A stretch of 37,625 nucleotides of DNA, taken from assembly GCA_028703755.1 (NCBI GenBank), contig JAQVMG010000002.1, positions 1 through 37,625 of the forward strand. The letters are read 5' to 3'. The translations under genes were made by a program, and so were the position numbers. Positions 221 through 33,436 of the stretch are shown piece after piece (within the stretch, counting starts at the first letter, position 1; each line of letters starts with the position of its first letter). This DNA is from Thermoplasmata archaeon (GTDB taxonomy: Archaea; Thermoplasmatota; Thermoplasmata; SG8-5). Below the pieces are notes generated by a model. The model saw nothing but the letters and a program-made list of their open reading frames with translations, was not told the origin of the DNA and ran no database searches.

Positions 221-393
221 TGAGTATTTTTCTTTAGAATTTTCTCCGCTGGATTAGGCTGTAAAGAAAAAGATTCAGTAAATACACTGCCGAACCCTTC
301 GGATCTCGGCGTGCCCTCAGCTGCTGCCTCGGGAGAAACCGCCTAATCCTGCTCGAAAATTCAAATGATGTTGTATAGGACGCGCTACTCAAT

Positions 394-447: not shown

Positions 448-3400
448 TTATTCCTCTTTCGGAGTTTCCTCAGCGGGTGTTTCCACCGGGGTCTCTTCCT
501 GGGGTGCTTCCTCGACCGGCTCTTCCGGTTTCGGGGCTGCGGATTCGGCTGCCTTGCCTGCCATCATCTTGGCGACGATCATGCCGACAAGCAGTCCGAC
601 AACCAGCATCGCGATTGCCGCGACTGCGACTATCGCTATGCCGTATCCCTCGGATGCCGCCTCTTGCTCGGCTGGAGCAAGCGGGTCGTCATCGTCTGCG
701 TCGAGGATTCCGTCGTTGTCGTCGTCAGGGTCGGCGTTGTTGCCGATGCCGTCGCCGTCAGTGTCGAGTGTCTCTGCCGCGTTGGTCGGGAATGCATCCG
801 AGTTGTCGCCGACGCCGTCGCCGTCAGAGTCCACAGTCTCCGTGGAATCGTTCGGGAATGCATCGTCGATGTCGAGGACACCGTCGCCGTCAGAGTCGGG
901 GTCGAACGGGTCGGTTCCGGCTGCGATTTCCTCAATGTCTGAGAGACCGTCGTTGTCGTCATCCGTGTCGACCACATCGGCAATTCCGTCGCCGTCGTTG
1001 TCGGTTGCGGCCTTCACTGTCCAGTTGGCCAATGAACGCCTTCCGTCCTGAGCGACTGAGACTGTGTGGTTGTCAGTGTCGAGGAGAATCGGCTGGAATA
1101 CGACGTTCTTCGTCTCCATTCCGCCAAGTTCCACGTACTGCTGGTTGACAACTTCGCCGTCGAGTATCAGGTTGAACAGCGCAAAGCCGTCGTAGGACCA
1201 GTTGTTCTTGGCGTCAAAGCTGACGTTGAACGGCTGGTTTATGACCGGCACTGCGGCTTCAAGGTTCCAGTACTCGACCGACAGGAAGAGGTCCGGGCTG
1301 ACGAGTGTGACGTAGCCCCTCTCGTGGGTTGTCGCGTTGTCAGTCGAAACTTCGACCTGAATCTCGTAGGCTCCCGCGGTGTACGGGTAGATCGTGGGCA
1401 GGACAAGCGTTGCCACACCCAGAGCGTTCGTTGTGCCGGTAACTCCCTCGGACGTTACAGTGGCGCCGCTGACGATTCTGTCGTACTCGTCAGTTACTTC
1501 CACCGTAATTGTGATGGGTTCTCCCATCACAACGACCGGTTCCGTCGCTTCCACGTTCGCTACCAGGGTCTTGGCGTTCGTGCCGTCTGCCAGGTAGGCT
1601 ATGTAGAAGTTGAACGGGAATTTGGCGTAGCCATCGTCCATGACCGATGTTGTGAATCCGATACCGGCATTGAAGGAGGTTATGCCTTCTAACCAGTATG
1701 GGGTCCATGATGAGTCATCCGGATTATCGGGGTTTTTAGCAAGCCAGGTGTTGTTTATCACGTCATTGTAGTTTCTGGTATAGACTCCGGCAGAGTTGGT
1801 TGTTCCTTCATTGATTGGGCCAAGAGGGGATGCTGTTCCTTTTGAAAGGGTAACATCCGTCGTTCCAAGATTTCCTGCCAAGTTTTGGTAGTTTATTGTA
1901 AAGGCTCCAACTGGGTCTTCTTTGGAGAGATATGGTGTGTCCATCTGGAACTTCGTCATGGTCGCGATTGGCGCTCTCAACAGAATGGCCTGGTCACTCA
2001 GGGTGAATGTTGCCTTCTCCCAGTAATAGACGTCAGCGTTGTCAGTCATCGGCGGTGCCCAGTCGGGGTAGTATTCCATCCAGAAGTTGTTGGCCGATGT
2101 ATTGAACATCTCTGCGACTCCGTAGCCTCCCACTCCGAACTGGAGCGGGATTTCAACATCTGCAAGGAAGGATGCGGTGTCTATGGTTGCTGTGAGCTGT
2201 CCGGCGCCGTCGGTGACAGACCTGTCTCCGATCCAGCTGCCAAGGTATCCGGCCCACCAGCCCAAGTCCCAGTCAGTTCCGTATTCTTCCCAATACCAGG
2301 AATCTCCTCCCTGGAACACGCCGGGTATGCCTTCGGATGTGGGCGGGATGAAGAACATGCAAGGCACTCCTGCCGCTGTGGTTCCGTCCTCCTCGTACAC
2401 GGTTGCCGTGATGTCCATGGTGGAGTCGTGGTCAGCGATTCCGGTGAAGTCGATGTCTGCGGCATATCCCTTCTGGTAATATGCGTTGTATATCTCGACA
2501 GCACCCGATATTCCGCTGTAGCCGCTCACATTGAACATCACCATGAGCGAGCGAGCATCCATCGAGGTGGTGGTCACCGTGAAGGTTGCCTCACCGTTCG
2601 CATCGGTTGTCTGGAACCAATCGCCGTTGATGCCGTCCCACTCGAGCGGGTCGTATCCCCAGTTGAACACATCCTCGCCTACTATGGGTGTCCAGGTTGC
2701 CGGGTCCATCAGAACCACATCAATGTCGACTGTGGCTGGTGTTGCTGTATATGGGTCGATGTCCATGAAGTTTGACGATACGGCTGTCACGTTGAGTTGT
2801 GCTGCAACGGGTATGAAGGGTTCAGAGTAGTAGTAGTGTGCGTAAAGGTCATCGCCTATCTGCAATCCGAACGTGCTTGAAACAAGCGTTATGTTGCCAG
2901 TCTCGTAGTTCAGGTTGTAGTCGATGCCCTCGACCAGTTCGATCCATCCGCCGGCCTGCGGTTCGAGGTAGAGTGAGCAGTTGTATACATCGTCCTCAGC
3001 CAGGAACCAGGGTCCGTTCTCTCCGCCTGCGGCGTTAACAACCACGGTCTCATTTGCAACCTCGGTTATTGTTACCATATTCACTGGCAGAACAAATCCC
3101 TGGGATACGCCTATGCTGTCCTCCACATAGAATGCCATGGGCAGATTGAGCGGGTCAGTTCCTACTGCGGTGATGTTGAAGACCGCCTCTCCCGATGCGT
3201 CTGTTGTGTTCTCGGTCCACTCGGGTTCCACTATGCCGTCATCATCCCAAGCTGTCATCATCACGTTCATGTCGGGGACAGGGGTCCATGTGTTATCGTA
3301 CAACGTGGCAGTGACAACCGCAGAGTCGCCCACAACATGTGTCATCGGGTCCGCATCGATTGTTGTTTCGGACACAGTGACGTTCATGTGGTATGTTGTC

Positions 3401-6273
3401 GCGGAAGGTGTCAGGTAGTTCCTGATGTATATCGCGACGCTATCCTTTATCGAGTAGGCCTTCGAGGTGTTGAATGTGGCTATGACTGTTCCCGCGCCGG
3501 TGTATGCTCCGTCAACAGTGAGGTTGAAAGTCACAACACCGTTGGCGTTTGTGTTCTTCACGGCCGCCTCGGCATCAATGACTGTTCCGTCCTCGGACAG
3601 TTCGATGGATACCGGGAAATCCGGTATTACCGCTCCGGTCTGGTCAGTCAGGTTCAGCGTTATCATGGTCGTCGTCGGGAACGGTGTCGCTCCGTTGACG
3701 TCCAGGACGTACTGCGTGACATCGGTGATATCGAGGTCATGCCAGTCGTAAAGGCTGCTCGATAATCCGATGATGAGGGACGCGCTCTGAATTTCCGGCA
3801 CAATCGTGTTGGGCACGGAAATGTTGGCCTTGAACTGCTCGAATCTGTGCTGGTTCGGGAGCATTCCGTCCGGAGGTGCGTGGTAGGTGAAGTTGGCCAT
3901 ACCTGCTGCATTCGTGGCGGTTGCATTGCTGCTTGACCAGCCGAACATCAGGTTGTTGTCCACATTCACTATGACGCCTCCGATTGGGTCGCCGTTCTCA
4001 TCGGTTACCTCTGCGGTGATTGTTGTTTCGCCGCTCGGCGGGATCACTCCGTCAGCTGTGTAAAGGCTCAGCTGGGCGAGGTGGTTCGTGAATTCGATGC
4101 CGATGACCTTCCTGACGATTGACCATGAGCCGTCCTTGGAGGTGTTTGTCTCAACCCAGACATCATCGATTCTCAGGTAGGGCATTGTAAGGTCGAAGTT
4201 GGCAACACCGTTCATGTCAGTAGTCGTGTTGACGAACTGGCCGAAGCTGGTAGTCACCTGAACTGTGGCACCTTCGCTTGGCTTCACTGTTCTGAAACCG
4301 CCGTCTTCATAGACATCCGATGCAAGCACGTTGCCGGATATTGTCTGTCCGGCACCTGCCATCGACGGTACGCTCATCTTGCTCTCGACTTCGAAATTGC
4401 CGGTGAACTGGAAGTAGTCGGGCGTTCCGGTTGAAATACCGGTGGAACCGCCTGTGCTGCCTCCCTCCTCTTCACCGCCCTCATCGCCGCCTTCTCCGGG
4501 CGGTGCGAGGTTGAATACCGAGAAGCCGTTATAGATTGTTCCGAAAGCCGGGACCCAGCCCTGCCAGACATCTTTTCGATATGCCTCGATGTTTGTCCTG
4601 TAGTAAAGTGTGTTGTAAGCAACATCCATCATTGTGGCGCCGCAGATATCCTTGATGATCTTTGCCCTTACTTCAGTGTCCATCGTGATGTCCATTTCCT
4701 CAATCATAGCGTCGACAGATGAGTTACTGTAACCGCCGGAGTTTGAACCGGCCGGGTTAACAGCGACATCGTAGTCGCTATGGAAGAAGTCTGCCATGTA
4801 TGATTCCGGGAACGAGCCGACTGTCCATCCCAGGATGAACATGTCGAAGTCTAAGGAGACGAAACCGGCGCTCACGATCGTGTCGAAGCTTGTCGGTACT
4901 GAAGCGATGTTCAGGCCGATTGACTTCAGGTTCTTCTCAATCATGATTCCGCTGTCTGCCCTGATGGGGTCGTAGTCCTTCGGTGGTGTCAGGATATTGT
5001 ATTTCAGTGGCGAGCCGTCGGGTTGGTCCCTCCAGCCGTCTCCGTCCTGGTCGGTGTAGCCGCTTGCGTCAAGAAGCGCCTTGGCTGCCTCCAGGTCACC
5101 GCCTGCTATCCAATCCGGTACGGTTGTGTTGACGTAATAGGTGTTAGTGACGGACATCGGGACGCTTCCCTGGATACCGTAACCGCCCATTAGCCTGTCA
5201 ACGATGTACTGCTTGTCGACGCAGTATGCGACTGCCCTTCTGAAGTTGACATCGGCCATGGCCCCCTTCCTCATGTTGTATGTCATGAAGAAGAATCCCT
5301 GGTCCTTGTTTGTCTCGATTCCGATATTGGGGTCTGTCTTTAACAGGTTGTAGTAACCCGGTGTCAGGCTCCATGGCAGGTGGTGCACGTCACCGTTCTG
5401 CAGTGCGAGAATCGCAACATCCAGCTGTGTGTATATCTTGAATTTGATTTTGGTAATAGTCTCTGGGTAGTTGGGGTAGTCAACGCCTTTCCATGTTGTG
5501 ACGCCGTCCTTGTCCCAGTAGTTCTCGTATGCAACTATGACTGAACCCTGCTCCTTGGTCCAGCTCTCCAGCATCATCGGTCCGGTTCCGTATGTAGCAT
5601 CGATTTCACTGGCATCTGAGCCGTAGCTGTAGTCCCAAGTCTTCTCGCCGCCGGCCTGGTCAAGTGTATGGTCTGCCCATATGTGGTGGGGCATGATCGG
5701 CACTGCCATGGTAAGGTACCAGAACATTGCGTATGGCTGGTTGAGGTGGAAGTCCACCCTTGTGTTCGGTGCGGTCGAGTTGAGCTCAACGCCGATATGG
5801 GTCGTTCCGCCGTCGTATCTGTCCCAAATTGCGGTGTCCCACTCAAGCGGTGTCAGGACCTGCGTCTGGAACAGTCCCCATGCCAGTGTCTGGTATGAGA
5901 ACACAACGTCAGTGGCGTTCATCGGCGTCCCGTCGTGGAATGTTACGCCAGTCCTTATGTTCACTGAAACTTGCATTCCGTCTGCGCTGATCCATGCATC
6001 CGCTCCGTTCGGACCAGTTGCGCTTGGTGCAGCCAGAACGGGGTACAGTTCGTAATCAGGGTTGTAGGCCATAAGGGTCTCAAAGTTCCAACCTATCTGA
6101 AAAGTTTTCCATACATCGTTCGTGTCAGGATCCCAGGGATTCATGCTTACCATGTCCTGCTGGAGAGCGATGACCAATGTGTCATCGGCTTCCTGAGCTG
6201 TGGCGAACCAAGGTATACTGGACACTATCATCATTCCGATTATTAGTGTACTTAAAACCTTTGTCGTTTTCAT
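448..6273 (-). CDS. Giant surface-anchored ABC substrate-binding protein. It combines a family-5 (peptide/nickel, OppA/DppA-like) SBP domain, Ig-like repeats, a CARDB-like domain, TSP3-like Ca-binding repeats, a TM anchor and a P/E-rich tail
   Basis: The 1,941-aa ORF has a GGAGAGG SD before the ATG. It starts with a signal peptide (MKTTKVLSTLIIGMMIVSSIPWFATAQ). Residues ~30-590 read like SBP_bac_5 (TLVIALQQDMVSMNPWD..., GVTFHDGTPMNATDVVFSY...). A G/E/S/T linker follows, then repeated beta-sandwich modules ending in ...TTDxNGxAxFxxT. A DxDxDGxxD repeat block, one TM helix and a PE-rich C-terminus complete the protein. A permease gene lies downstream. Confidence 0.85.
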   Translation of the reverse strand: MKTTKVLSTLIIGMMIVSSIPWFATAQEADDTLVIALQQDMVSMNPWDPDTNDVWKTFQIGWNFETLMAYNPDYELYPVLAAPSATGPNGADAWISADGMQVSVNIRTGVTFHDGTPMNATDVVFSYQTLAWGLFQTQVLTPLEWDTAIWDRYDGGTTHIGVELNSTAPNTRVDFHLNQPYAMFWYLTMAVPIMPHHIWADHTLDQAGGEKTWDYSYGSDASEIDATYGTGPMMLESWTKEQGSVIVAYENYWDKDGVTTWKGVDYPNYPETITKIKFKIYTQLDVAILALQNGDVHHLPWSLTPGYYNLLKTDPNIGIETNKDQGFFFMTYNMRKGAMADVNFRRAVAYCVDKQYIVDRLMGGYGIQGSVPMSVTNTYYVNTTVPDWIAGGDLEAAKALLDASGYTDQDGDGWRDQPDGSPLKYNILTPPKDYDPIRADSGIMIEKNLKSIGLNIASVPTSFDTIVSAGFVSLDFDMFILGWTVGSFPESYMADFFHSDYDVAVNPAGSNSGGYSNSSVDAMIEEMDITMDTEVRAKIIKDICGATMMDVAYNTLYYRTNIEAYRKDVWQGWVPAFGTIYNGFSVFNLAPPGEGGDEGGEEEGGSTGGSTGISTGTPDYFQFTGNFEVESKMSVPSMAGAGQTISGNVLASDVYEDGGFRTVKPSEGATVQVTTSFGQFVNTTTDMNGVANFDLTMPYLRIDDVWVETNTSKDGSWSIVRKVIGIEFTNHLAQLSLYTADGVIPPSGETTITAEVTDENGDPIGGVIVNVDNNLMFGWSSSNATATNAAGMANFTYHAPPDGMLPNQHRFEQFKANISVPNTIVPEIQSASLIIGLSSSLYDWHDLDITDVTQYVLDVNGATPFPTTTMITLNLTDQTGAVIPDFPVSIELSEDGTVIDAEAAVKNTNANGVVTFNLTVDGAYTGAGTVIATFNTSKAYSIKDSVAIYIRNYLTPSATTYHMNVTVSETTIDADPMTHVVGDSAVVTATLYDNTWTPVPDMNVMMTAWDDDGIVEPEWTENTTDASGEAVFNITAVGTDPLNLPMAFYVEDSIGVSQGFVLPVNMVTITEVANETVVVNAAGGENGPWFLAEDDVYNCSLYLEPQAGGWIELVEGIDYNLNYETGNITLVSSTFGLQIGDDLYAHYYYSEPFIPVAAQLNVTAVSSNFMDIDPYTATPATVDIDVVLMDPATWTPIVGEDVFNWGYDPLEWDGINGDWFQTTDANGEATFTVTTTSMDARSLMVMFNVSGYSGISGAVEIYNAYYQKGYAADIDFTGIADHDSTMDITATVYEEDGTTAAGVPCMFFIPPTSEGIPGVFQGGDSWYWEEYGTDWDLGWWAGYLGSWIGDRSVTDGAGQLTATIDTASFLADVEIPLQFGVGGYGVAEMFNTSANNFWMEYYPDWAPPMTDNADVYYWEKATFTLSDQAILLRAPIATMTKFQMDTPYLSKEDPVGAFTINYQNLAGNLGTTDVTLSKGTASPLGPINEGTTNSAGVYTRNYNDVINNTWLAKNPDNPDDSSWTPYWLEGITSFNAGIGFTTSVMDDGYAKFPFNFYIAYLADGTNAKTLVANVEATEPVVVMGEPITITVEVTDEYDRIVSGATVTSEGVTGTTNALGVATLVLPTIYPYTAGAYEIQVEVSTDNATTHERGYVTLVSPDLFLSVEYWNLEAAVPVINQPFNVSFDAKNNWSYDGFALFNLILDGEVVNQQYVELGGMETKNVVFQPILLDTDNHTVSVAQDGRRSLANWTVKAATDNDGDGIADVVDTDDDNDGLSDIEEIAAGTDPFDPDSDGDGVLDIDDAFPNDSTETVDSDGDGVGDNSDAFPTNAAETLDTDGDGIGNNADPDDDNDGILDADDDDPLAPAEQEAASEGYGIAIVAVAAIAMLVVGLLVGMIVAKMMAGKAAESAAPKPEEPVEEAPQEETPVETPAEETPKEE
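682..1008 (-). repeat. Thrombospondin type-3-like calcium-binding repeat block (about 6 x DxDxDGxxDxxD) inside the giant CDS
   Basis: The protein segment runs ATDNDGDGIADVVDTDDDNDGLSD...DSDGDGVLD...DSDGDGVGD...DTDGDGIGN...DDDNDGILDADDDD. The GAC/GTC-rich DNA here generates the spurious + strand ORFs at 365-1148. Confidence 0.8.
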
Positions 6274-11188: not shown

Positions 11189-11647
11189 CGGTATGGGACA
11201 GAATAAATTGTGATATTAAGCTTGCCCTCGGTAATCTCATCGTTCTTTGATTGCCGATTACCGAGAAGACGGTTGATGGTGTTTGCTTCTTTTCTGCCCC
11301 ATCAACGGCGAATGCTCTTTATCGCAATTATTCAATTACCGCATTCACCTATTGCCATTAATATGCAAATGTATGGTGCTGGATTCAGCTAAATAATTCT
11401 CCGCACCATAGTCGAATGCGCTGTAAATAAATGATGATAGCCGCATTCAACACTTTTGTGTTCAATAATTTAACATGCGGTTCAAATCTCAATTCAACAG
11501 GCCATTCAGTTCTCCGTTTCTTCCCCTATTCAACACCTCTTGTGATACCCACCTGTGCAGGTTTTATTGTAACTATTATTAACCAATTTAATATACGCCT
11601 GCCTAACGATATCAAATAACTGGCTGTTTTGGCACAATCTCGATAAG

Positions 11648-11655
11648 TTTTATAT
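11648..11655 (+). promoter_or_regulatory. TATA box (TTTATATA), candidate promoter of the ribosomal protein operon
   Basis: This is a consensus archaeal TATA box 216 nt upstream of the uL3 ATG. It is the only strong box in the last 250 nt before the operon. Confidence 0.5.
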
Positions 11656-11870
11656 AGAACCACCCTTTAAGCCCTAAAAGCCGCTAGAACGGTATGTCTA
11701 CCAAACGGCTAGGGATAATCATTCCCTTCGCTGTCCCCGAATTGATTCTGTGGGACGGTCCCCGTTACGGTTGACCTTCGATACCGGCCTGGCAAAGCGT
11801 ACCGTCGAACATTGGAACGGCGGATTGGAACGTCGCTCAGCGAAGCGGCGCACCCCCAGGGGGCTAAAAA

Positions 11871-24463: not shown

Positions 24464-24897
24464 GGCGAAAGACCGAGAAATACAGGGGGCGCAGGACCCA
24501 CGGCCGCGGCAAGAAGGGCGGCAGAGGCGCAGGCCTCCGCGGCGGAAAGGGAAATGCAGGCCTTCACAAACACAAATACCTCTACACGGTGAAATACGAC
24601 CCGTTCCACTTCGGAAGATACGGCTTCAAGCGTCACGCCTCGCTCGAGGATGAGAAAGTGACGATAAATGTGGGCAACATCCAGAGTGAACTGCCCACAT
24701 ATCTGGAGAACGGCATGGCCAAGAAGAGCGACAAAGGCATCCTGATCGATCTGACCCAGTCCGAATACAACAAGCTCCTGGGAGGCGGAAGCATTAAAAC
24801 ACCCGTCACAATCAGGGTTCACGAAGCCACCGCCATGGCCAAGCAGAAAGTCGAGGCTGCTGGGGGCAAGGTAGAGGTCCCCGAAAATGATGAGTGA
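24460..24897 (+). CDS. rpl15: 50S ribosomal protein uL15
   Basis: I recognise RGRRTHGRGKKGGRGAGLRGGKGNAG. Confidence 0.95.
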   Translation: MRRKTEKYRGRRTHGRGKKGGRGAGLRGGKGNAGLHKHKYLYTVKYDPFHFGRYGFKRHASLEDEKVTINVGNIQSELPTYLENGMAKKSDKGILIDLTQSEYNKLLGGGSIKTPVTIRVHEATAMAKQKVEAAGGKVEVPENDE

Positions 24898-26450
24898 TGC
24901 ACATGACTGAGGGTGAATCCAAGAGTCTGCTGTACAAACTGAAGCCCATCTATACAAGGCTTCCGTCCATCAAGAAGCCGGACGGCCACGTCCATTTCAA
25001 GACAAAGATGTTCTGGCTAGTTCTGATTCTCATACTCTATTTCATTCTCACAAATGTTATGATTTACGGTCTCGACCAGGAGAAAACCATCGACCTTTTC
25101 GAGAGCTACCGTGCAATCATGGCAGGCGCTCAGGGTTCGCTGATGCATCTTGGTATCGGCCCGATAGTTACCGGTTCAATCATAATGCAGCTCTTCGTGG
25201 GCGCCAAGATAATCAAATTGGACCTCAAGGATTCAGAGGACAAGGCAGTTTACCAGGGAGTTCAGAAATTTCTCGTCATAATTATGATAGTCGTTGAGGC
25301 GGTTCCCCAGGTATACGGTTATCTGATACCCTCGACGAATTTAGATGCCAATATCGGTGCCAATTGGGCCAAGATACTTATTATAGCCCAACTCTGTTTC
25401 GGAAGCTATCTCGTATTCCTCATGGACGAAACAGTTTCCAAGTGGGGCATCGGAAGCGGTATCTCTCTGTTCATTGCAGCAGGAGTAGCTCAGCAGATGT
25501 TCACCGGAACACTGAACTGGATGCCGGTTGACAGCAGCCTGCCCACAAGTTTATCAAATCCGCCTGCAGGCACAATCATGAAGACCGTTTACTTCTACAC
25601 CCACGTATCTTCCGGCAACATGTCAGGCGGTTATTTCGAGCAACTCCTGATTCAGCAGCCCAATCCTATAGTCGCCCTGTTGGGCACTCTGATCATATTC
25701 TTCTTCGTGGCATATGTCGAATCCGTGCGCATCGAACTCCCGCTCTCGCATGAAAGCGCGAGAGGTGCCAGAGGCCGCTATCCGATCAAACTGATATACG
25801 CATCCAACATCCCTGTCATCCTGATAGCTGCGGTCCTTGCCAACGTCGGCATGTTCGCTATGCTCTTCTGGTCCAATTCATTCTTCTCGAATGTTCCAAT
25901 TCTGGGACACAACCCGATGGTCGGTTACTATCTTGACCAGGGGGGCCAACCGCAGTTGGCGGGAGGTGCGGCATGGTACGTCTCGACGCTGGGAGGGGTG
26001 CAGGACTGGCTCCTACCTATATTCAACGCCGGCTATCTGCCCGAAGGCAAATCCCTGCTCCAGGTGATGGCGAGATTGTTCATCTATCTCACTGTGATGA
26101 TTGTCGGTTCCATCCTGTTCGCCAAGTTCTGGATTGACACCACCAACATGGGCCCGAAGGCCGTTGCTGAGCAGATACAGAACAGCGGCATGCAGATCCC
26201 GGGTTTCAGGCGTGATCCAAGGGTTCTTGAGAAGGTGCTTGAAAGGTACATTCCAGTGGTAACGGTACTCAGCGGTGCGATAGTCGGCGGCCTTGCTGCC
26301 TTCGCGGACATGCTGGGCACTGTGGGCAACTCCAGCGGCACGGGCGTGCTGCTGGCCGTAGGCATCATGATACAGACATACGAAGCCATGGGCCGCGAGC
26401 AGATGATGGAGATGCACCCGGTGCTCAGAGGCTTCTTTGGTGGAGAATAA
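24894..26450 (+). CDS. secY: Preprotein translocase subunit SecY
   Basis: The 518-aa protein has 10 TM segments and recognisable SecY sequence (GIGPIVTGSIIMQL, YASNIPVIL). It sits in the conserved position after uL15. The start is GTG 24894 or ATG 24897. Confidence 0.95.
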   Translation: MMHMTEGESKSLLYKLKPIYTRLPSIKKPDGHVHFKTKMFWLVLILILYFILTNVMIYGLDQEKTIDLFESYRAIMAGAQGSLMHLGIGPIVTGSIIMQLFVGAKIIKLDLKDSEDKAVYQGVQKFLVIIMIVVEAVPQVYGYLIPSTNLDANIGANWAKILIIAQLCFGSYLVFLMDETVSKWGIGSGISLFIAAGVAQQMFTGTLNWMPVDSSLPTSLSNPPAGTIMKTVYFYTHVSSGNMSGGYFEQLLIQQPNPIVALLGTLIIFFFVAYVESVRIELPLSHESARGARGRYPIKLIYASNIPVILIAAVLANVGMFAMLFWSNSFFSNVPILGHNPMVGYYLDQGGQPQLAGGAAWYVSTLGGVQDWLLPIFNAGYLPEGKSLLQVMARLFIYLTVMIVGSILFAKFWIDTTNMGPKAVAEQIQNSGMQIPGFRRDPRVLEKVLERYIPVVTVLSGAIVGGLAAFADMLGTVGNSSGTGVLLAVGIMIQTYEAMGREQMMEMHPVLRGFFGGE

Positions 26451-26489
26451 TAGGTGCTTTTAACCACAGAAGCCACACTATTAGGTTAG

Positions 26490-26727
26490 CAACATGCCCC
26501 GTCTGAATGTTATAATATAGGTAGCTTGAGGGCGGGGTTCTGTTAGTTCATATTATTGAGTGACCGCATATTTGGAGCAAAAACGCATTTTGTTAGCCGG
26601 TTTCGGGTGCCCCGTCTGTAAGGGCGGGGGGGTGAGGTACTCGCCTGGCAGGAAAGCCAGGTGAAACACATTTGTTAACTCTAACAATGAGGCGTCTCAT
26701 TCACCCTTCGCGTTGCTATTGCTTAAA
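26490..26727 (+). repeat. Candidate structured RNA / repeat element, copy A
   Basis: There is no credible ORF. Three GC hairpins are present: 26497-26504/26530-26537, 26610-26617/26622-26629 with a GUAA loop, and 26642-26649/26656-26663. The element aligns by eye over its full length with the reverse complement of 29105-29340. Confidence 0.7.
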
Positions 26728-26787
26728 CAAATGGGTGCGCGCCCTGTCCATTCTAATATAAGGCACTTCCGATAAACTCACCGAAAC

Positions 26788-26796
26788 CTAATATAT
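26788..26796 (+). promoter_or_regulatory. TATA-like box (CTAATATAT) for pyrH; the transcript would be near-leaderless
   Basis: The box lies 27-35 nt upstream of the ATG at 26823. No SD is present. Confidence 0.4.
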
Positions 26797-26822
26797 CCTT
26801 CAACAGATTCCCGGCCGATACC

Positions 26823-27509
26823 ATGGACACAGTCGTAGTTTCTATAGGCGGCTCGATTCTAGTTCCCGACGACGATGACAAGGATTACATCGTGAAGCTG
26901 GCCAAGATGCTGAACCGCATCTCGGGCAAGGTAAGATTGTTCATAGTCGTGGGCGGCGGCCGCATCGCCCGCTACTACATCAAACTGGGCCGCAGCCTGG
27001 GTGCCGATGAATCCTATCTCGATGACATAGGCATCGAGGTCACCAGGCTCAACGCCAGGATGCTGATTATTGCTCTCGGTGAATCTGCGTACCATGTTCC
27101 TGCAGAGACCTTTAACGAGGCACTTTCCGCGGCAAAAAATCACCCGATTGTCATAATGGGCGGCACCCATCCCGGCCACACAACCGACGCAGTCGCAGCC
27201 ATGTTGGGCGAGCGGGCAGGAGCAACCAGGCTGATAAATGCCACATCTGTCAACGGCGTTTACACCGCCGACCCAAAAAAGGACCCAAAGGCCAAAAGGC
27301 TGAAGAAGGTCACGTTCAGCCAGCTTATCGAAATATGTATGAAAGTCGAGCCGGGCGCCGGACCCAATGTGGTCTTCGACCCGCTGGGTGCGAAGATCGT
27401 TGCCAGGTCTGGAATCAAGACCCTGGTCGTGCAGGGCAGAGACCTCGCCGAACTGGAAAAAGCCATCCTGGGCAAGCCGTTCGACGGCACGGTCGTTTCG
27501 GGTGAATGA
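26823..27509 (+). CDS. pyrH: UMP kinase, archaeal type (amino-acid kinase family)
   Basis: I recognise VVVSIGGSILVP, FIVVGGGRIARYY, IMGGTHPGHTTDAVAA and VNGVYTADPKKDP. Confidence 0.9.
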   Translation: MDTVVVSIGGSILVPDDDDKDYIVKLAKMLNRISGKVRLFIVVGGGRIARYYIKLGRSLGADESYLDDIGIEVTRLNARMLIIALGESAYHVPAETFNEALSAAKNHPIVIMGGTHPGHTTDAVAAMLGERAGATRLINATSVNGVYTADPKKDPKAKRLKKVTFSQLIEICMKVEPGAGPNVVFDPLGAKIVARSGIKTLVVQGRDLAELEKAILGKPFDGTVVSGE

Positions 27510-28091
27510 ATGGCCTTCCGGGCATTCATTGCTGCCGAGGTTCCGTTTTCTCCAGAGTTGGAATCTTTTTCAAAGGCTGTAAAAGCATCCGGCGCCTCCG
27601 CAAAAATGGTGGACCTGCGCAACATCCACATCACGCTGAAGTTCCTGGGTGATACCGACGAGGCGCTGGTTCCTGACATCGAGAAGGTGATGAGGGCCGC
27701 GGTCTCGGAAATTTCTCCTTTCAGGATGCAGTTGAAAGGCACTGGCGCATTCCCGAACCTCAACCGGATATCTGTTGTCTGGGCCGGGCTGGAAGGGGCT
27801 GAACCGCTGGCGACAGTCGCGAAAAGGATTGACGAAGGTCTGAAGCCCCTTGGTTTCGAACCCGAGAAAAGGGCATTCTCCCCGCATGTGACGGTGGCCA
27901 GAATCAGGGACGGACGAAACGTTCGGGAGTTGGCCGAAGTAATCCGCGAATGGGAACATTCAAATTTCGGGGAAGTGCCAGTAGACCGAATCATCCTCAA
28001 GAAGAGCGTTCTGCGGCCGGAAGGGCCGGTTTATTCCGATGTAGCTTTTGCGGAGTTACCTTTATATAACCTCAGAGTGCATCATCCTTAA
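27510..28091 (+). CDS. thpR: RNA 2',3'-cyclic phosphodiesterase / 2'-5' RNA ligase family (2H phosphoesterase)
   Basis: Two HxT/SxT motifs are present at the expected spacing: IHITLKFLG and PHVTVARI. The ATG abuts the pyrH stop. Confidence 0.88.
   Translation: MAFRAFIAAEVPFSPELESFSKAVKASGASAKMVDLRNIHITLKFLGDTDEALVPDIEKVMRAAVSEISPFRMQLKGTGAFPNLNRISVVWAGLEGAEPLATVAKRIDEGLKPLGFEPEKRAFSPHVTVARIRDGRNVRELAEVIREWEHSNFGEVPVDRIILKKSVLRPEGPVYSDVAFAELPLYNLRVHHP
28061..28068 (+). promoter_or_regulatory. TATA box (TTTATATA) of tbp copy 1
   Basis: The box sits in the context CCTTTATATAAC, 48 nt upstream of the ATG at 28116. An AGGGGGG SD lies at 28101-28107. The same CCTTTATATA + AGGGGG arrangement precedes tbp copy 2. 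Confidence 0.6.
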
Positions 28092-28115
28092 TAACCCATC
28101 AGGGGGGCCGAAACT

Positions 28116-28673
28116 ATGTCTGAAGCACAGAAAATTAGCGTCGAGAACATTGTGGCATCAACTTCCCTTGCAGAGAAACTTGACCTGAATCAGGTCGCCC
28201 TCGTGCTGGAAGGTGCCGAATACGAGCCGGAACAGTTCCCAGGCCTGGTTTACAGGCTGAAGGAGGAAAAGACAGCGATACTGCTTTTCAGAAGCGGGAA
28301 GGCCAATTGCACCGGAGGCAAGACAATCGAGAGTGTCCGGAGGACAATAAAGACGGTCAGCAAGAAGCTGGAGAAAGCCGGAATGCCCGTGATCAAGGAT
28401 CCGGTCATCACCGTTCAGAACATTGTGGCTGTCTATGACCTCAAGCATGACCTGAATCTCAATGCGATTGCAATCACACTCGGCCTTGAACGGGTCGAGT
28501 ATGAGCCCGAACAATTCCCAGGCCTCGTATTCAGGGTCGCAAAACCCAAGGTGGCAATGCTGCTTTTCGGTTCAGGAAAGGTCGTCTGCACCGGGGCAAA
28601 GACCGTTGAAGACATTGGGATTGCTGTCGAAGCAGTCAGGAAGGAGCTTCAGGCCGCCGGGCTTCTCAACTGA
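28116..28673 (+). CDS. tbp: TATA-box binding protein, copy 1
   Basis: The 185-aa protein has two internal TBP repeats (ENIVAS...EPEQFPGLVYRL...LLFRSGKANCTG / QNIVAV...EPEQFPGLVFRV...LLFGSGKVVCTG). Confidence 0.95.
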   Translation: MSEAQKISVENIVASTSLAEKLDLNQVALVLEGAEYEPEQFPGLVYRLKEEKTAILLFRSGKANCTGGKTIESVRRTIKTVSKKLEKAGMPVIKDPVITVQNIVAVYDLKHDLNLNAIAITLGLERVEYEPEQFPGLVFRVAKPKVAMLLFGSGKVVCTGAKTVEDIGIAVEAVRKELQAAGLLN

Positions 28674-28805
28674 GCAAAACTATCTGAAGCGCACTCGTTC
28701 AACCGCCTCGTTGTCCTGGCTAACCGCCCCTCGGTTCAGTTCCGGCCAACATTATCATGCCTCGGCTGATTGTTTTCATGTTGAATTCCGAGGCCGGGGT
28801 TGTAC

Positions 28806-28828
28806 CGCCAGATTTTGAAAATCTGGCG
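28806..28828. repeat. Perfect 23-bp palindrome CGCCAGATTTT-G-AAAATCTGGCG
   Basis: Read directly from the sequence. It lies in the tbp1-tbp2 spacer. Confidence 0.8.
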
Positions 28829-29104
28829 ATATGACATGATTACCGTCATCATACTTAGGATTCCTCGGGGCTTGCCCCGGGGAGGTATTTAAATCGGCAT
28901 TCTACCCGGTCCAGAGGCCTCGGCACCGGCCAACCACACAGATTTTCGAGCATGCGAACCCAATTTTTCTTATTTGCCGAATCTTTTTCTTTTGGGGGGT
29001 GAGCCCCGCAGGCGACAGTGTCGCCGAGGCAAAACCGAAATCGCAGAAACGGTTGAGAGCGCAGAAAATCTAAAAAGAAAAATACTGCGACCAACCCGAC
29101 TACG

Positions 29105-29340
29105 GTTCTTGACAATTGGGGAACGAAGTTTGAACGAAACGTATCTGTGCTAGAGCTGAGAAAATGATGATTGCCTGGCTTGTGTTAGCCAGGCAAGTAC
29201 CTGACATCCCCGCCCCTGCGGAGGCGGGGTTTTCCAATACAGAGCAACAGAATGCCCCAGAATGCCTGTCACCCATACAGCCAATAATATGAAACCCCGC
29301 CCTAATAAAACACTGTAAAAATGCCAGGCGGGGCATGCTG
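29105..29340 (-). repeat. Candidate structured RNA / repeat element, copy B (inverted relative to copy A)
   Basis: The minus strand carries the same ordered blocks and three hairpins as copy A: + coordinates 29295-29302/29326-29333, 29208-29214/29223-29229, and 29171-29180/29187-29196. The loops differ from those of copy A. Confidence 0.7.
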
Positions 29341-29367
29341 CAGATATAGTCATTGCCACAGGCAGCC

Positions 29368-29375
29368 TTTATATA
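29368..29375 (+). promoter_or_regulatory. TATA box (TTTATATA) of tbp copy 2; its TA-rich surroundings could also fire divergently toward element B
   Basis: The sequence CCTTTATATACTATATATAC lies 58 nt upstream of the TTG start at 29426. An AGGGGG SD lies at 29411-29416. Confidence 0.55.
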
Positions 29376-29425
29376 CTATATATACATAATAGACAGAAAT
29401 CGCACTGATTAGGGGGCGTGAAACA

Positions 29426-29983
29426 TTGACCGAAAAACAGAAAATCAGCATCGAAAACATAGTGGCATCGACAACGCTGGCCGAGAAGCTTGACCTGAAC
29501 CAGGTCGCTCTCGCCCTGGACGGCGCGGAATACGAGCCGGAGCAGTTCCCCGGCCTGGTTTACAGGCTTAAGGAGGAAAGGACTGCCATTCTGCTCTTCA
29601 GGAGCGGAAAGGCGAACTGCACAGGCGCCAAGACCATCGAGAGCGTCAAGAAGACCATAAAGACGGTCAGCAAGAAGCTTGAGAAAGCCGGACTTCCCGT
29701 CATCAAGGACCCGGTCATCACCGTACAGAACATAGTTGCTGTTTACGACCTCAAGAACGACCTCAACCTAAACGCAATCGCGATTACTCTGGGTCTAGAG
29801 CGCGTCGAGTACGAGCCCGAGCAATTCCCCGGCCTCGTTTACAGAGTCGCCGACCCCAAGGTCGTCATGCTGCTCTTCGGCTCGGGAAAAGTCGTCTGCA
29901 CAGGTGCCAAGAAAGTCGATGACATCGAAACAGGCGTAGAGACCCTGAAAAAGGAGCTCAGAGCCGCCGGACTGCTTCACTAA
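29426..29983 (+). CDS. tbp: TATA-box binding protein, copy 2 (TTG start)
   Basis: The 185-aa protein is colinear with copy 1, with about 25 substitutions by eye. The TTG aligns exactly with the ATG of copy 1. An in-frame stop lies at 29390, and there is no in-frame ATG between that stop and the TTG. Confidence 0.92.
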   Translation: MTEKQKISIENIVASTTLAEKLDLNQVALALDGAEYEPEQFPGLVYRLKEERTAILLFRSGKANCTGAKTIESVKKTIKTVSKKLEKAGLPVIKDPVITVQNIVAVYDLKNDLNLNAIAITLGLERVEYEPEQFPGLVYRVADPKVVMLLFGSGKVVCTGAKKVDDIETGVETLKKELRAAGLLH

Positions 29984-32899: not shown

Positions 32900-33089
32900 T
32901 CTTTTTCTTCACGTCATTCTCATAAGTAGGCAGAAAAAGATGCTCTAGAATGATAATATACGCCTAATACTTAGTGATATCAGAATCAATTCGTATTAGG
33001 CTGGCCGAGAATTATAAGACCATATTAATTTCTAAGCATATAATTCGAGTGCGACGAATTCGCCTATCGCATTTATCTGCAGAGAATTC

Positions 33090-33144
33090 GTCAGCACCGC
33101 CAAACTAGCGACTATTACATTTAGTTACAAAGTCTGTTTGGCGG
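33090..33144 (+). repeat. 55-nt hairpin repeat, copy 1 (GTCAGCACCGCCAAAC...GTTTGGCGG)
   Basis: This copy is 55/55 identical to 33241-33295. It contains a 9-bp inverted repeat CCGCCAAAC/GTTTGGCGG with a further GACU/AGUC pairing inside. Confidence 0.85.
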
Positions 33145-33240
33145 GTAAGTGCATGGAGTCGTTTCTATCTATCTTCGTCGGTGTATTCGTCTTCTCTCGG
33201 TCTATTGCGGAGAATACGCCAGAGTGAAGACCTCGAGCGC

Positions 33241-33295
33241 GTCAGCACCGCCAAACTAGCGACTATTACATTTAGTTACAAAGTCTGTTTGGCGG
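33241..33295 (+). repeat. 55-nt hairpin repeat, copy 2
   Basis: This copy is identical to copy 1 and lies 151 nt downstream in direct orientation. Confidence 0.85.
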
Positions 33296-33436
33296 ATATC
33301 CTTTCTAGCATAGAATCGTTTCCAATCATCTTTTACATCCTGGCATATGTATTTTCTTTTGTATTCCATCTCCATAATTTATTTATAGTGTCAAATGTAA
33401 TGCCATTATGCAAAATAATTGCAGAAGGTTTAAAAA

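Follow-up and report, generated by a model that had tools for sequence, protein, structure and literature searches.

A 37,625-nt stretch of contig JAQVMG010000002.1 of a Thermoplasmata archaeon (lineage SG8-5), referred to here as the window, carries two copies, A and B, of a hairpin-rich non-coding element, A downstream of secY and B between two genes for TATA-binding proteins (tbp). We consider it probable, at roughly 0.6, that both represent a non-autonomous intergenic repeat, about 270 nt long, mosaic and rich in hairpins, similar to the repetitive extragenic palindromes (REP) and bacterial interspersed mosaic elements (BIME) or to the palindrome-associated transposable elements (PATEs), that this repeat is dispersed in Methanomassiliicoccales-related Thermoplasmata, and that neither copy is functionally tied to secY, pyrH or tbp. 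One copy of the repeat, about 270 nt, is called an arm. The arms are multi-copy, modular and strand-specifically structured; they are locally dispensable, precisely gained or lost, and evolve as mosaics.

An earlier annotation of the window (the original prediction) had presented A and B as a structured element and its diverged, inverted twin. The two copies do lie where they had been placed, on opposite strands, and they are homologous. A MAFFT alignment recovered the shared blocks that had been listed and gave 71% column identity along the full length, and the local alignment score of 53 was well above the values obtained with 500 dinucleotide shuffles (17.3 +/- 2.4, maximum 30; z-score about 15). 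Folding and covariance-model (CM) matches (Table 1) confirmed that hairpins H1, H2 and H3 are common to both copies. The lengths of the H1 loops, the GUAA and AGGAAA loops of H2 and H3 in A, and the T/C differences that turn G.U into G-C pairs were as described, and the 8-nt loop ascribed to H2 of B was replaced on folding by a 9-bp stem with a CGCA tetraloop. The positions given for the element held but its length did not, the full copies being longer (Table 1). The absence of a credible open reading frame (ORF) was also borne out, and a coding role was rejected: no ORF is conserved, and the ATG within the CATG tag opens different short frames, which run for 8 codons in A as against 78 in B. 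No third full copy is present in the window, where, barring A and its overlapping windows, nothing scored above 28 in local alignment. What did not survive is the notion of a pair attached to secY and tbp. On the columns of the model A and B are 60% identical, whereas A shares 78% identity with a JAUSPR01 copy and B likewise 78% with a UBA280 copy; the two are members of separate subfamilies within a dispersed multi-copy family and form no special pair. The prediction had also named an explanation by insertion sequences (IS) or miniature inverted-repeat transposable elements (MITEs) as one that would count against it, and in kind this is what was found, the copies being non-syntenic, strain-polymorphic and mosaic.

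The family was recovered by scanning for patterns, twice across contigs of genomes taken one per species and once in metagenome sequence, and by searching with an nhmmer profile and with a covariance model, R1, of 217 positions and 28 pairs. Building and searching such a model had been suggested as a check, and it yielded dozens of homologues with a top score of 188 bits: 55 matches at E <= 0.01, of which about 45 are arms or part-arms and the remainder reverse-strand matches to the H3 hairpin only. The hosts are seven metagenome-assembled genomes (MAGs) of Thermoplasmata/Methanomassiliicoccales, namely JAUSPR01, CAYHBA01, UBA280 (DAKD01), JAWOHM01, S2_100 (VMTD01), SG8-5 (weak) and CALKWP01. 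LSSH01 is likewise among the accessions bearing arms or part-arms, and sediment-type metagenome contigs (Ga0315274/Ga0315290) also carry them. The consensus arm begins with a leader of roughly 20 nt (GGCAwTTTGAAA) and a tag, GCAGCATG, which precedes H1 in about 90% of arms. The H1 stem (CCCCGCCT/GGGCGGGG) is nearly invariant, and its loop ranges from 4 to about 60 nt. There follow a semi-conserved core (TGGGTGACAG.GCATTCTGGGGCATT... or subfamily variants), then H2, an 8-9-bp stem of variable sequence whose loop frequently reads GTGA or GTAA or else holds a large insertion, then the linker GRKGTCRGGTAC and H3 (TCGCCTGGC/GCCAGGYGA, then AA), and finally a pyrimidine-rich tail (AGCTCTAGCAYGGAWTCGTYTCTCTCAYCCTT) and a variable terminal block. 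GTGAC, GGTAC, GAAA and CTCTAGCA..CGTYTCTCTCA.CCTT are conserved as linkers. H1 and H3 are conserved in sequence and the H2 stem co-varies freely; the CCCCGYCT stems common to A and B are a family trait. Concerted evolution of H1 and H2 within an arm was considered and found no support, same-arm H1 and H2 being no more alike than those of different arms (P = 0.35).

Similarity searches placed the repeat in no Rfam family, in line with the prediction, which had recognised in it no SRP RNA, RNase P RNA, 5S rRNA or C/D or H/ACA sRNA. At gathering threshold, the 4227 models of Rfam 15 matched only tRNAs in the window; at E <= 10 in positions 26400-29500 nothing overlapped A, and B was overlapped by a single opposite-strand, sub-threshold chance match (RF00624 P9, 16 bits vs 43, E 4.4). 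At E <= 5 no model overlapped the arms at seven other arm-bearing loci. With respect to a plasmid or phage origin, blastn against PLSDB and INPHARED gave no match, and neither did two pattern scans of viral contigs followed by nhmmer with respect to a viral one. In the literature on Methanomassiliicoccales or their relatives we found no description of such a repeat.

The structure of the arms was assessed on two alignments, one of 22 arms that was derived from the hidden Markov model (HMM) and is not fitted to structure, and the CM alignment of 55 sequences, which leans toward structure. In the former, 98.5% of 606 cells were standard pairs and 10 of the 28 pairs had changed on both sides; none of 500 column shuffles reached any of these measures, and partners slid by 1-3 columns paired in 34-56% of cells. 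In the latter, 97.9% of cells paired, with 15 pairs doubly changed, values that again none of 500 shuffles reached, and slid partners gave 36-59%. The double changes were mostly in H2 (e.g. CCTCGGGT/GCCCGGGG, CCCTGCCT/GGGCAGGG and CCTCGGTC/GACCGGGG). These pairing and covariation statistics agree with the earlier view that the stems are maintained and the loops free, and that this is not neutral spacer. Nearly all non-Watson-Crick cells were G.U on the given strand, the ratio of G.U to A.C being 90:0 in the HMM alignment and 188:5 in the CM alignment (67:5 without three near-fixed G.U pairs). A double-stranded palindrome would not be asymmetric in this way, which indicates that the arm acts in folded, single-stranded form and with a fixed polarity, whether as RNA or as single-stranded DNA. 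A scan for covarying helices, including long-range pairings and pseudoknots, returned only H1-H3 and one alternative, a possible hairpin GUCRGGU/GCCUGGC that competes with H3. Inspection by eye for K-turn and 11-nt receptor motifs gave no convincing match.

We then compared loci with and without the arms (numbered L). At E <= 1, R1 found no match in 80 secY-syntenic loci (906 kb), and A was absent from all 80 secY-pyrH spacers. With filters off, the three closest secY loci gave two marginal matches (9-10 bits, E 0.24-0.36) at other positions, away from the spacer. By SecY identity the closest genome compared was Methanomassiliicoccales archaeon UBA147 (91%), followed by S2_100 (87%). In S2_100 and CSMAG_1752 (L078 and L079) the secY-pyrH spacer measures 55-100 nt and contains the same pyrH promoter box, CGAAACCTAATATATCC, as the window; S2_100 bears arms elsewhere (L202, L225 and L254). 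In UBA147 the spacer holds an unrelated 300-nt repeat (L077 7563-7868). Relatives of that repeat were seen in JAUSPR01 (L162 and L208), and an 80-nt, 78%-identical piece of it lies at 11373-11451, in the 11189-11870 spacer of the window.

Strain alleles of the window locus itself were obtained from short-read contigs of other samples. Two of them (L290 and L292) were 100% identical to the window. A third, L289, was 99.1-99.6% identical from secY to tbp1 and carried a 69-nt module in the loop of H2 of A, between the GTA and the final A (positions 26620 and 26621); its tbp1-tbp2 spacer (397 nt) consisted of a short arm of a related type (type 2, described below) and two long-hairpin T-modules, and lacked B, so that GCTGTG was joined to AGTATTTTTC. 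In L291, L293 and L294 (91-95% identical) exactly 29087-29328 was missing, and the first 29 nt of B were retained. Taken together, these alleles fix the ends of B at 29356 and 29087 (270 nt). B is flanked by CTGTG and AGTATT, and comparison of the empty site (GCTGTG followed by AGTATT) with the filled one (CTGTG, B, AGTATT) revealed no target-site duplication (TSD). The ends of B, GCAATGAC... and ...GGTTGGTCGC, do not form an inverted repeat, an inverted arrangement being seen only where two whole arms make a doublet. The breaks of assemblies inside arms (L057, L070 and, among Logan contigs, L290-L294) are a further feature of these loci.

Smaller modules are gained and lost within the arms as well. 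Among the alleles of A, the 69-nt module was present in L289 only, and four other genomes have it in their arms as well, in the loop of H1 or H2, its usual insertion site being between CTGTA and AGG of the loop sequence, with no TSD. This two-hairpin 'CGAG module' (CGAGGATTGTAGCC...GCCGAATTTTGAATTCGGCGATG; L289 231-299) is present or absent between otherwise 99%-identical strains. An archaeal intron with a bulge-helix-bulge motif was rejected as its identity, no 4-bp central helix flanked by 3-nt bulges being drawable on inspection of L289 225-305. The arm loops also host two other small modules, one a long T-rich hairpin and the other a palindrome of ~30 nt in either orientation; the palindromic mini-repeat, GGTATCCAAAGTCYTGAGGGACATTTGGAAC, was found both inside arm loops and beside arms (L046, L049, L063, L010 and L057). 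Finally, comparison of the arms that are orthologous between L066 and L072 gave 100% identity for H1, its 23-nt loop included, and for H3 together with its tail, with visible divergence of the core and of H2, where three pairs had been swapped. Across the entire arm region identity was 73%, and at the near-neutral third codon positions of the flanking gene 69%. This pattern indicates segmental exchange among copies.

Table 1. Arms, related modules and neighbouring genes in the window.
Feature	Position	Strand	Details
Arm A, full copy	about 26472..26743	+	CM match 26487-26710, 152 bits; nhmmer match 26473-26733
Arm A, layout			5' leader and tag (GCCACACTATTAGGTTAGCAACATG), H1, core (GAGTGAC...GCAAAAACGCATTTTG), H2, linker GGGTGAGGTAC, H3, GAAAC
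Arm A, 3' part			After GAAAC, pyrimidine-rich tail, then terminal block GGGTGCGCGCC
Arm A, H1	26496..26538	+	GCCCCGTCT (26496-26504) / GGGCGGGGT (26530-26538), 25-nt loop
Arm A, H2	26610..26629	+	CCCCGTCT / GGGCGGGG, GTAA loop
Arm A, H3	26641..26664	+	TCGCCTGGC / GCCAGGTGA, AGGAAA loop; invariant GGTAC before, AAC after
Arm B, full copy	29087..29356	-	Exact ends 5'-GCAATGACTATATCTGCAGCATG...GTCGGGTTGGTCGC-3'; CM match 29124-29343, 186 bits
Arm B, H1	29294..29334	-	GCCCCGCCT (29334-29326) / GGGCGGGGT (29302-29294), 23-nt loop
Arm B, H2	29208..29229	-	CCCCGCCTC / GGGGCGGGG, 9 bp, CGCA loop
Arm B, H3	29171..29196	-	TTGCCTGGC / GCCAGGCAA, loop TAACACAA
Type 2 arm, distant relative	28735..28935	+	CM 19.9 bits, E about 1e-3; tail-to-tail with B
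T-module, long hairpin	28975..29090	.	GAATCTTTTTCTTTT ... AAAAAGAAAAATACTG; between type 2 arm and B
Weak relative 1	33122-33177	+	CM 15 bits, E 0.015
Weak relative 2	33273-33334	+	CM 12 bits, E 0.07
pyrH	26823-27509		Amino-acid-kinase-fold gene, consistent with pyrH
ligT	27510-28091		LigT-like gene of the 2',5'-RNA-ligase family
tbp1	28116-28673		TATA-binding protein
tbp2	29426-29983		TATA-binding protein

The limits of A in Table 1 are approximate (+/- 5 nt), having been set by analogy to the JAUSPR copies and to the exactly defined ends of B. B itself belongs to a ~610-nt composite (28735-29356), in which it is joined by the type 2 arm and a long-hairpin module. The type 2 arm has a 5' tag and H1 as in the other arms (CATGCCTCGGCTG...GAGGCCGGGG) and an H2-like hairpin (CCTCGGGGCTTGCCCCGGGG), and its 3' module differs from theirs (GGTATTTAAATCGGCATTC..ACCCGG..GGCACCGGCCAACC); a GGCACCGGCCAAC-like block flanks it on either side. 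Homologues of this type were found in L066 (765-969), L071 and L170, and the whole composite is homologous to one in CAYHBA01 that has unrelated flanks. The T-rich T-module (GAATCTTTTTCTTT...AAAGAAAAATAC) also occurs within the H1 and H2 loops of arms of JAUSPR01 and CAYHBA01, where contigs break, and similar stems were noticed near the start of the window (222-276), together with an exact 45-nt direct repeat (177-221/394-438). The tbp1-tbp2 spacer is made of repeat modules throughout and is strain-variable, measuring 693 nt in the window as against 397 nt in L289. Each of the two weak relatives consists of another hairpin (CACCGCCAAAC..GTTTGGCGG) followed by the tail block of the arms, GCATGGAnTCGTTTC..ATCTT (GCATGGAGTCGTTTCTATC.ATCTT). 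They belong to units of the region 33085-33335 (+) that lie 151 nt apart downstream of tRNA-Gly(CCC) and share a 59-nt segment with 98% identity; at the corresponding tRNA-Gly(CCC) place UBA147 has four tandem repeats of ~164 nt.

Placement of the arms is intergenic, with only 3 of 45 overlapping a predicted gene. According to a codon-model gene caller, the adjacent upstream gene was co-oriented with the arm in 26 cases vs 11 (p = 0.02), and the arm typically started 10-60 nt past the stop codon of that gene. Arms paired tail to tail between convergent genes were observed repeatedly (L003, L010 with two, L032, L049, L066, L076, L192 and L044/L157), and in the window the tail-to-tail partner of B is the type 2 arm. 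The neighbours are housekeeping genes such as those for enolase, an aCPSF1-like protein and pyruvate:ferredoxin oxidoreductase (PFOR). In L057 (279-352), L204 (1846-1919) and L252 (1774-1846), arms are convergent to tRNA-His (JAUSPR01 and UBA280) and tRNA-Gly(CCC). T-loop-like strings (GGTTCGAAT) were noted in some arm flanks, with no tRNA-like fold detected. A tRNA-like element or integration site was rejected on the ARAGORN results, which gave only the genuine neighbouring tRNAs, and a riboswitch or 5' leader was rejected because the arms follow stop codons and the downstream gene is usually convergent.

The window includes an archaeal ribosomal-protein operon of the spc type, whose last gene is secY (24894-26450). 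The two tbp genes are a tandem duplication with a 1310-nt period (82% DNA identity between 28098-28397 and 29408-29707), and UBA147 has one tbp only, which resembles tbp2 more. Between the 5' end of B and tbp2, positions 29363-29378 form a near-palindromic TATA region (TTTATATACTATATATAC) that could in principle fire both ways and so initiate a transcript of B near the GCAGCATG tag. Elsewhere in the window, a very long ORF (448-6273, -; about 1941 aa) is internally repetitive at 736-898, where tandem repeats of 66 nt code for units rich in Asp and Gly.

We believe that these results are best explained by a repeat whose folded single strand would be recognised by a trans-encoded enzyme and moved by it, in a manner perhaps akin to the peel-and-paste of PATEs derived from IS200/IS605 or to the mobilisation of REP and their hairpin-forming doublets (REPINs) by Y1/HUH transposases. 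The likeness to PATEs and REPINs follows from the lack of TSDs and terminal inverted repeats (TIRs), from the tag and an H1 of invariant sequence lying about 22 nt inside the 5' end, and from the strand specificity. Since the arms are sense-oriented in 3' regions, they are probably transcribed by read-through and would then form stable 3' structures, possibly as a side effect or as a benefit that is tolerated. Several observations weigh against such a mobile repeat. The copies within a genome are old (60-78% identical), with no recent burst. By crude motif filters, none of 237 predicted genes around the arms resembles TnpA (Y1), TnpB or HuH/Y transposases; no arm is attached to an ORF, and no autonomous copy was present among the pattern matches. 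The 5' flanks, which end in CTGTG, AAAGG, GAAAG, ATAGG, TCAGG, TATTG or CAGAA, are purine-rich and share no fixed motif, nor do they contain a clear conserved target tetranucleotide, the junction being mostly ...RRG before GCA. The helix scan returned no covarying hairpin near the 3' end of the arm, and the presence/absence polymorphism might reflect deletion and not insertion.

Conservation of blocks across distant MAGs, the frequency of GNRA-type loops and the sense bias also weigh against it in that they fit a host RNA function equally well. The arms would then be a host non-coding RNA (ncRNA) family or cis-elements of 3' untranslated regions (serving mRNA 3'-end protection, termination, insulation of convergent genes or as a protein-binding small RNA) multiplied by duplication and recombination, with the structure under RNA-level selection to the benefit of the host, an alternative to be kept in mind at perhaps one chance in four. 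To its credit stand the sense-strand-specific pairing with abundant G.U, the compensatory changes and GNRA-like tetraloops (GTGA, GTAA and GCGA), the unpaired GGTAC and GAAA invariant across distant MAGs, the 26:11 bias towards starts shortly after the stop of a co-oriented gene, and the fact that some positions are common to genomes in which the flanking proteins share no more than 73% identity (L010/L063), as well as the tRNA-His neighbours in L057 and L204. However, B is missing where flanks are 91-99% identical and A in 80 of 80 syntenic relatives, no conserved promoter or terminator was found, the module composition varies from copy to copy, and other, unrelated repeat families occupy the same spacers. 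An improbable variant of the mobile repeat is that the arms are PATE-type derivatives of IS200/IS605 in which H1 is the left-end hairpin and H2, H3 and the tail a TnpB omega RNA scaffold reading into the 3' flank, TnpB and TnpA acting in trans. The precise ends of B without TSD or TIR and the strand-specific conserved structure of about 200 nt would suit this, as would an H1 that begins 22 nt from the 5' end, a geometry presumably similar to that of the IS608 left end. Geobacillus PATEs do encode omega RNAs that are used in trans (PMC10055086), and Archaea do have IS200-type Y1 transposases (PMC6006769). Yet neither tnpB nor tnpA adjoins any of the ~45 arms, whose upstream genes are secY, an aCPSF1-like gene and other housekeeping genes, no Rfam family matched at E <= 5-10, the 5'-flank target motif is weak, and adjacent tail-to-tail pairs are not predicted by the lagging-strand-directed insertion of IS200/IS605 (cf. 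PMC6006769).

The geometry of the window also brings to mind a composite that carries pyrH, ligT and tbp1 as cargo and has A and B as its inverted ends, or an invertible segment bounded by them, since A (+) and B (-) are turned towards one another over a distance of 2.4 kb much as adjacent tail-to-tail pairs are elsewhere. This reading is contradicted, and very unlikely, in that secY, pyrH, ligT and tbp are syntenic in relatives that lack both arms, B is missing in strains that keep A and the genes, and the two copies belong to different subfamilies, the real partner of B being the type 2 arm. Chance similarity or neutral spacer, for which one can say that GC-rich hairpins are simple sequences and nothing further, is refuted by the alignment z-score, the dozens of homologues with their CM scores and the clear covariation controls. 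Returning to the mobile repeat, we would venture with some reserve that the arms are the repeat half of an undescribed archaeal REPIN-like or PATE-like system, in which a ~270-nt folded single strand with a sequence-specific recognition hairpin (H1) and a conserved RNA scaffold (H2, H3 and tail) might be mobilised by a trans-encoded HUH/Y1 transposase or an RNA-guided nuclease, and possibly exploited as a guide or catalytic RNA; this is rather doubtful. If true, it would mean that, in several lineages of Thermoplasmata, host and mobile element live in a lasting symbiosis.

The findings have some practical bearing. The covariance model is ready for annotating, in related MAGs, a recurrent cause of assembly breaks and of spurious 'conserved ncRNA' calls, and the exact filled and empty alleles define the ends of the element and thereby make the mechanism of mobilisation testable. 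The coexistence of strong covariation and G.U asymmetry with local dispensability calls for caution in ncRNA discovery by covariation only, and the arms are a marker of strain-level genome plasticity beside core genes (the spc operon and tbp).

Structured, strand-specific repeats of the REP, BIME and PATE kind are well studied in bacteria. Like the REP, BIME and REPIN sequences of Proteobacteria, which depend on REP-associated tyrosine transposases (RAYTs, of the Y1 class), the arms have what resembles a GC-rich imperfect palindrome with a short conserved tag beside the stem, are extragenic, lie mostly at 3' ends and between convergent genes, form doublets of alternating orientation and mosaics with other motifs, and are long-lived within lineages and transcribed with upstream genes (for the arms, by presumed read-through). 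They differ in that a REP unit is a palindrome of 20-40 nt with the tag GTAG or CGTC, whereas an arm measures about 270 nt, has the tag (GCAG)CATG and comprises three distinct hairpins with conserved single-stranded linkers, its H1 and tag palindrome being embedded in a much larger conserved unit. REP have their RAYT, and the arms belong to an archaeal host with no associated gene identified near them; only IS200-type Y1 proteins and no RAYT subclasses are known in Archaea (PMC6006769). PATEs may carry structured RNA (PMC10055086) and are present in an archaeon, Haloquadratum (PMC3119063). With PATEs and other protein-less IS200/IS605 derivatives the arms share a non-coding body of a few hundred nt, the lack of TIR and TSD, a subterminal hairpin on one strand and precise presence or absence between strains. 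In contrast to PATEs, no parent IS with matching ends was found for them, nor a clear conserved target tetranucleotide or a covarying counterpart of the right-end hairpin, and they frequently form tail-to-tail doublets.

Modularity is also known from the BOX element of Streptococcus pneumoniae (boxA-boxB(n)-boxC, with a variable number of internal modules), and BOX and the structured MITEs of the ERIC and Correia type are intergenic, have stable RNA folds and depend on a transposase that is unknown or acts in trans. The arms are like these elements in being modular, intergenic and stably folding; they are unrelated in sequence, the hosts of the former are bacterial, and Correia and ERIC have the TIRs and TSDs that arm B lacks. 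A classical TIR-type MITE is likewise short, non-coding and multi-copy, but arm B shows neither TIR nor TSD. With the RNA families of Rfam, none of which matches, the arms have in common a covarying structure and a size typical of ncRNA. A structured, non-autonomous intergenic repeat is of a kind already known in bacteria and haloarchaea, and what is new here is its size, the three-hairpin architecture with conserved linkers, the sub-modules targeted to loops, and the archaeal host.

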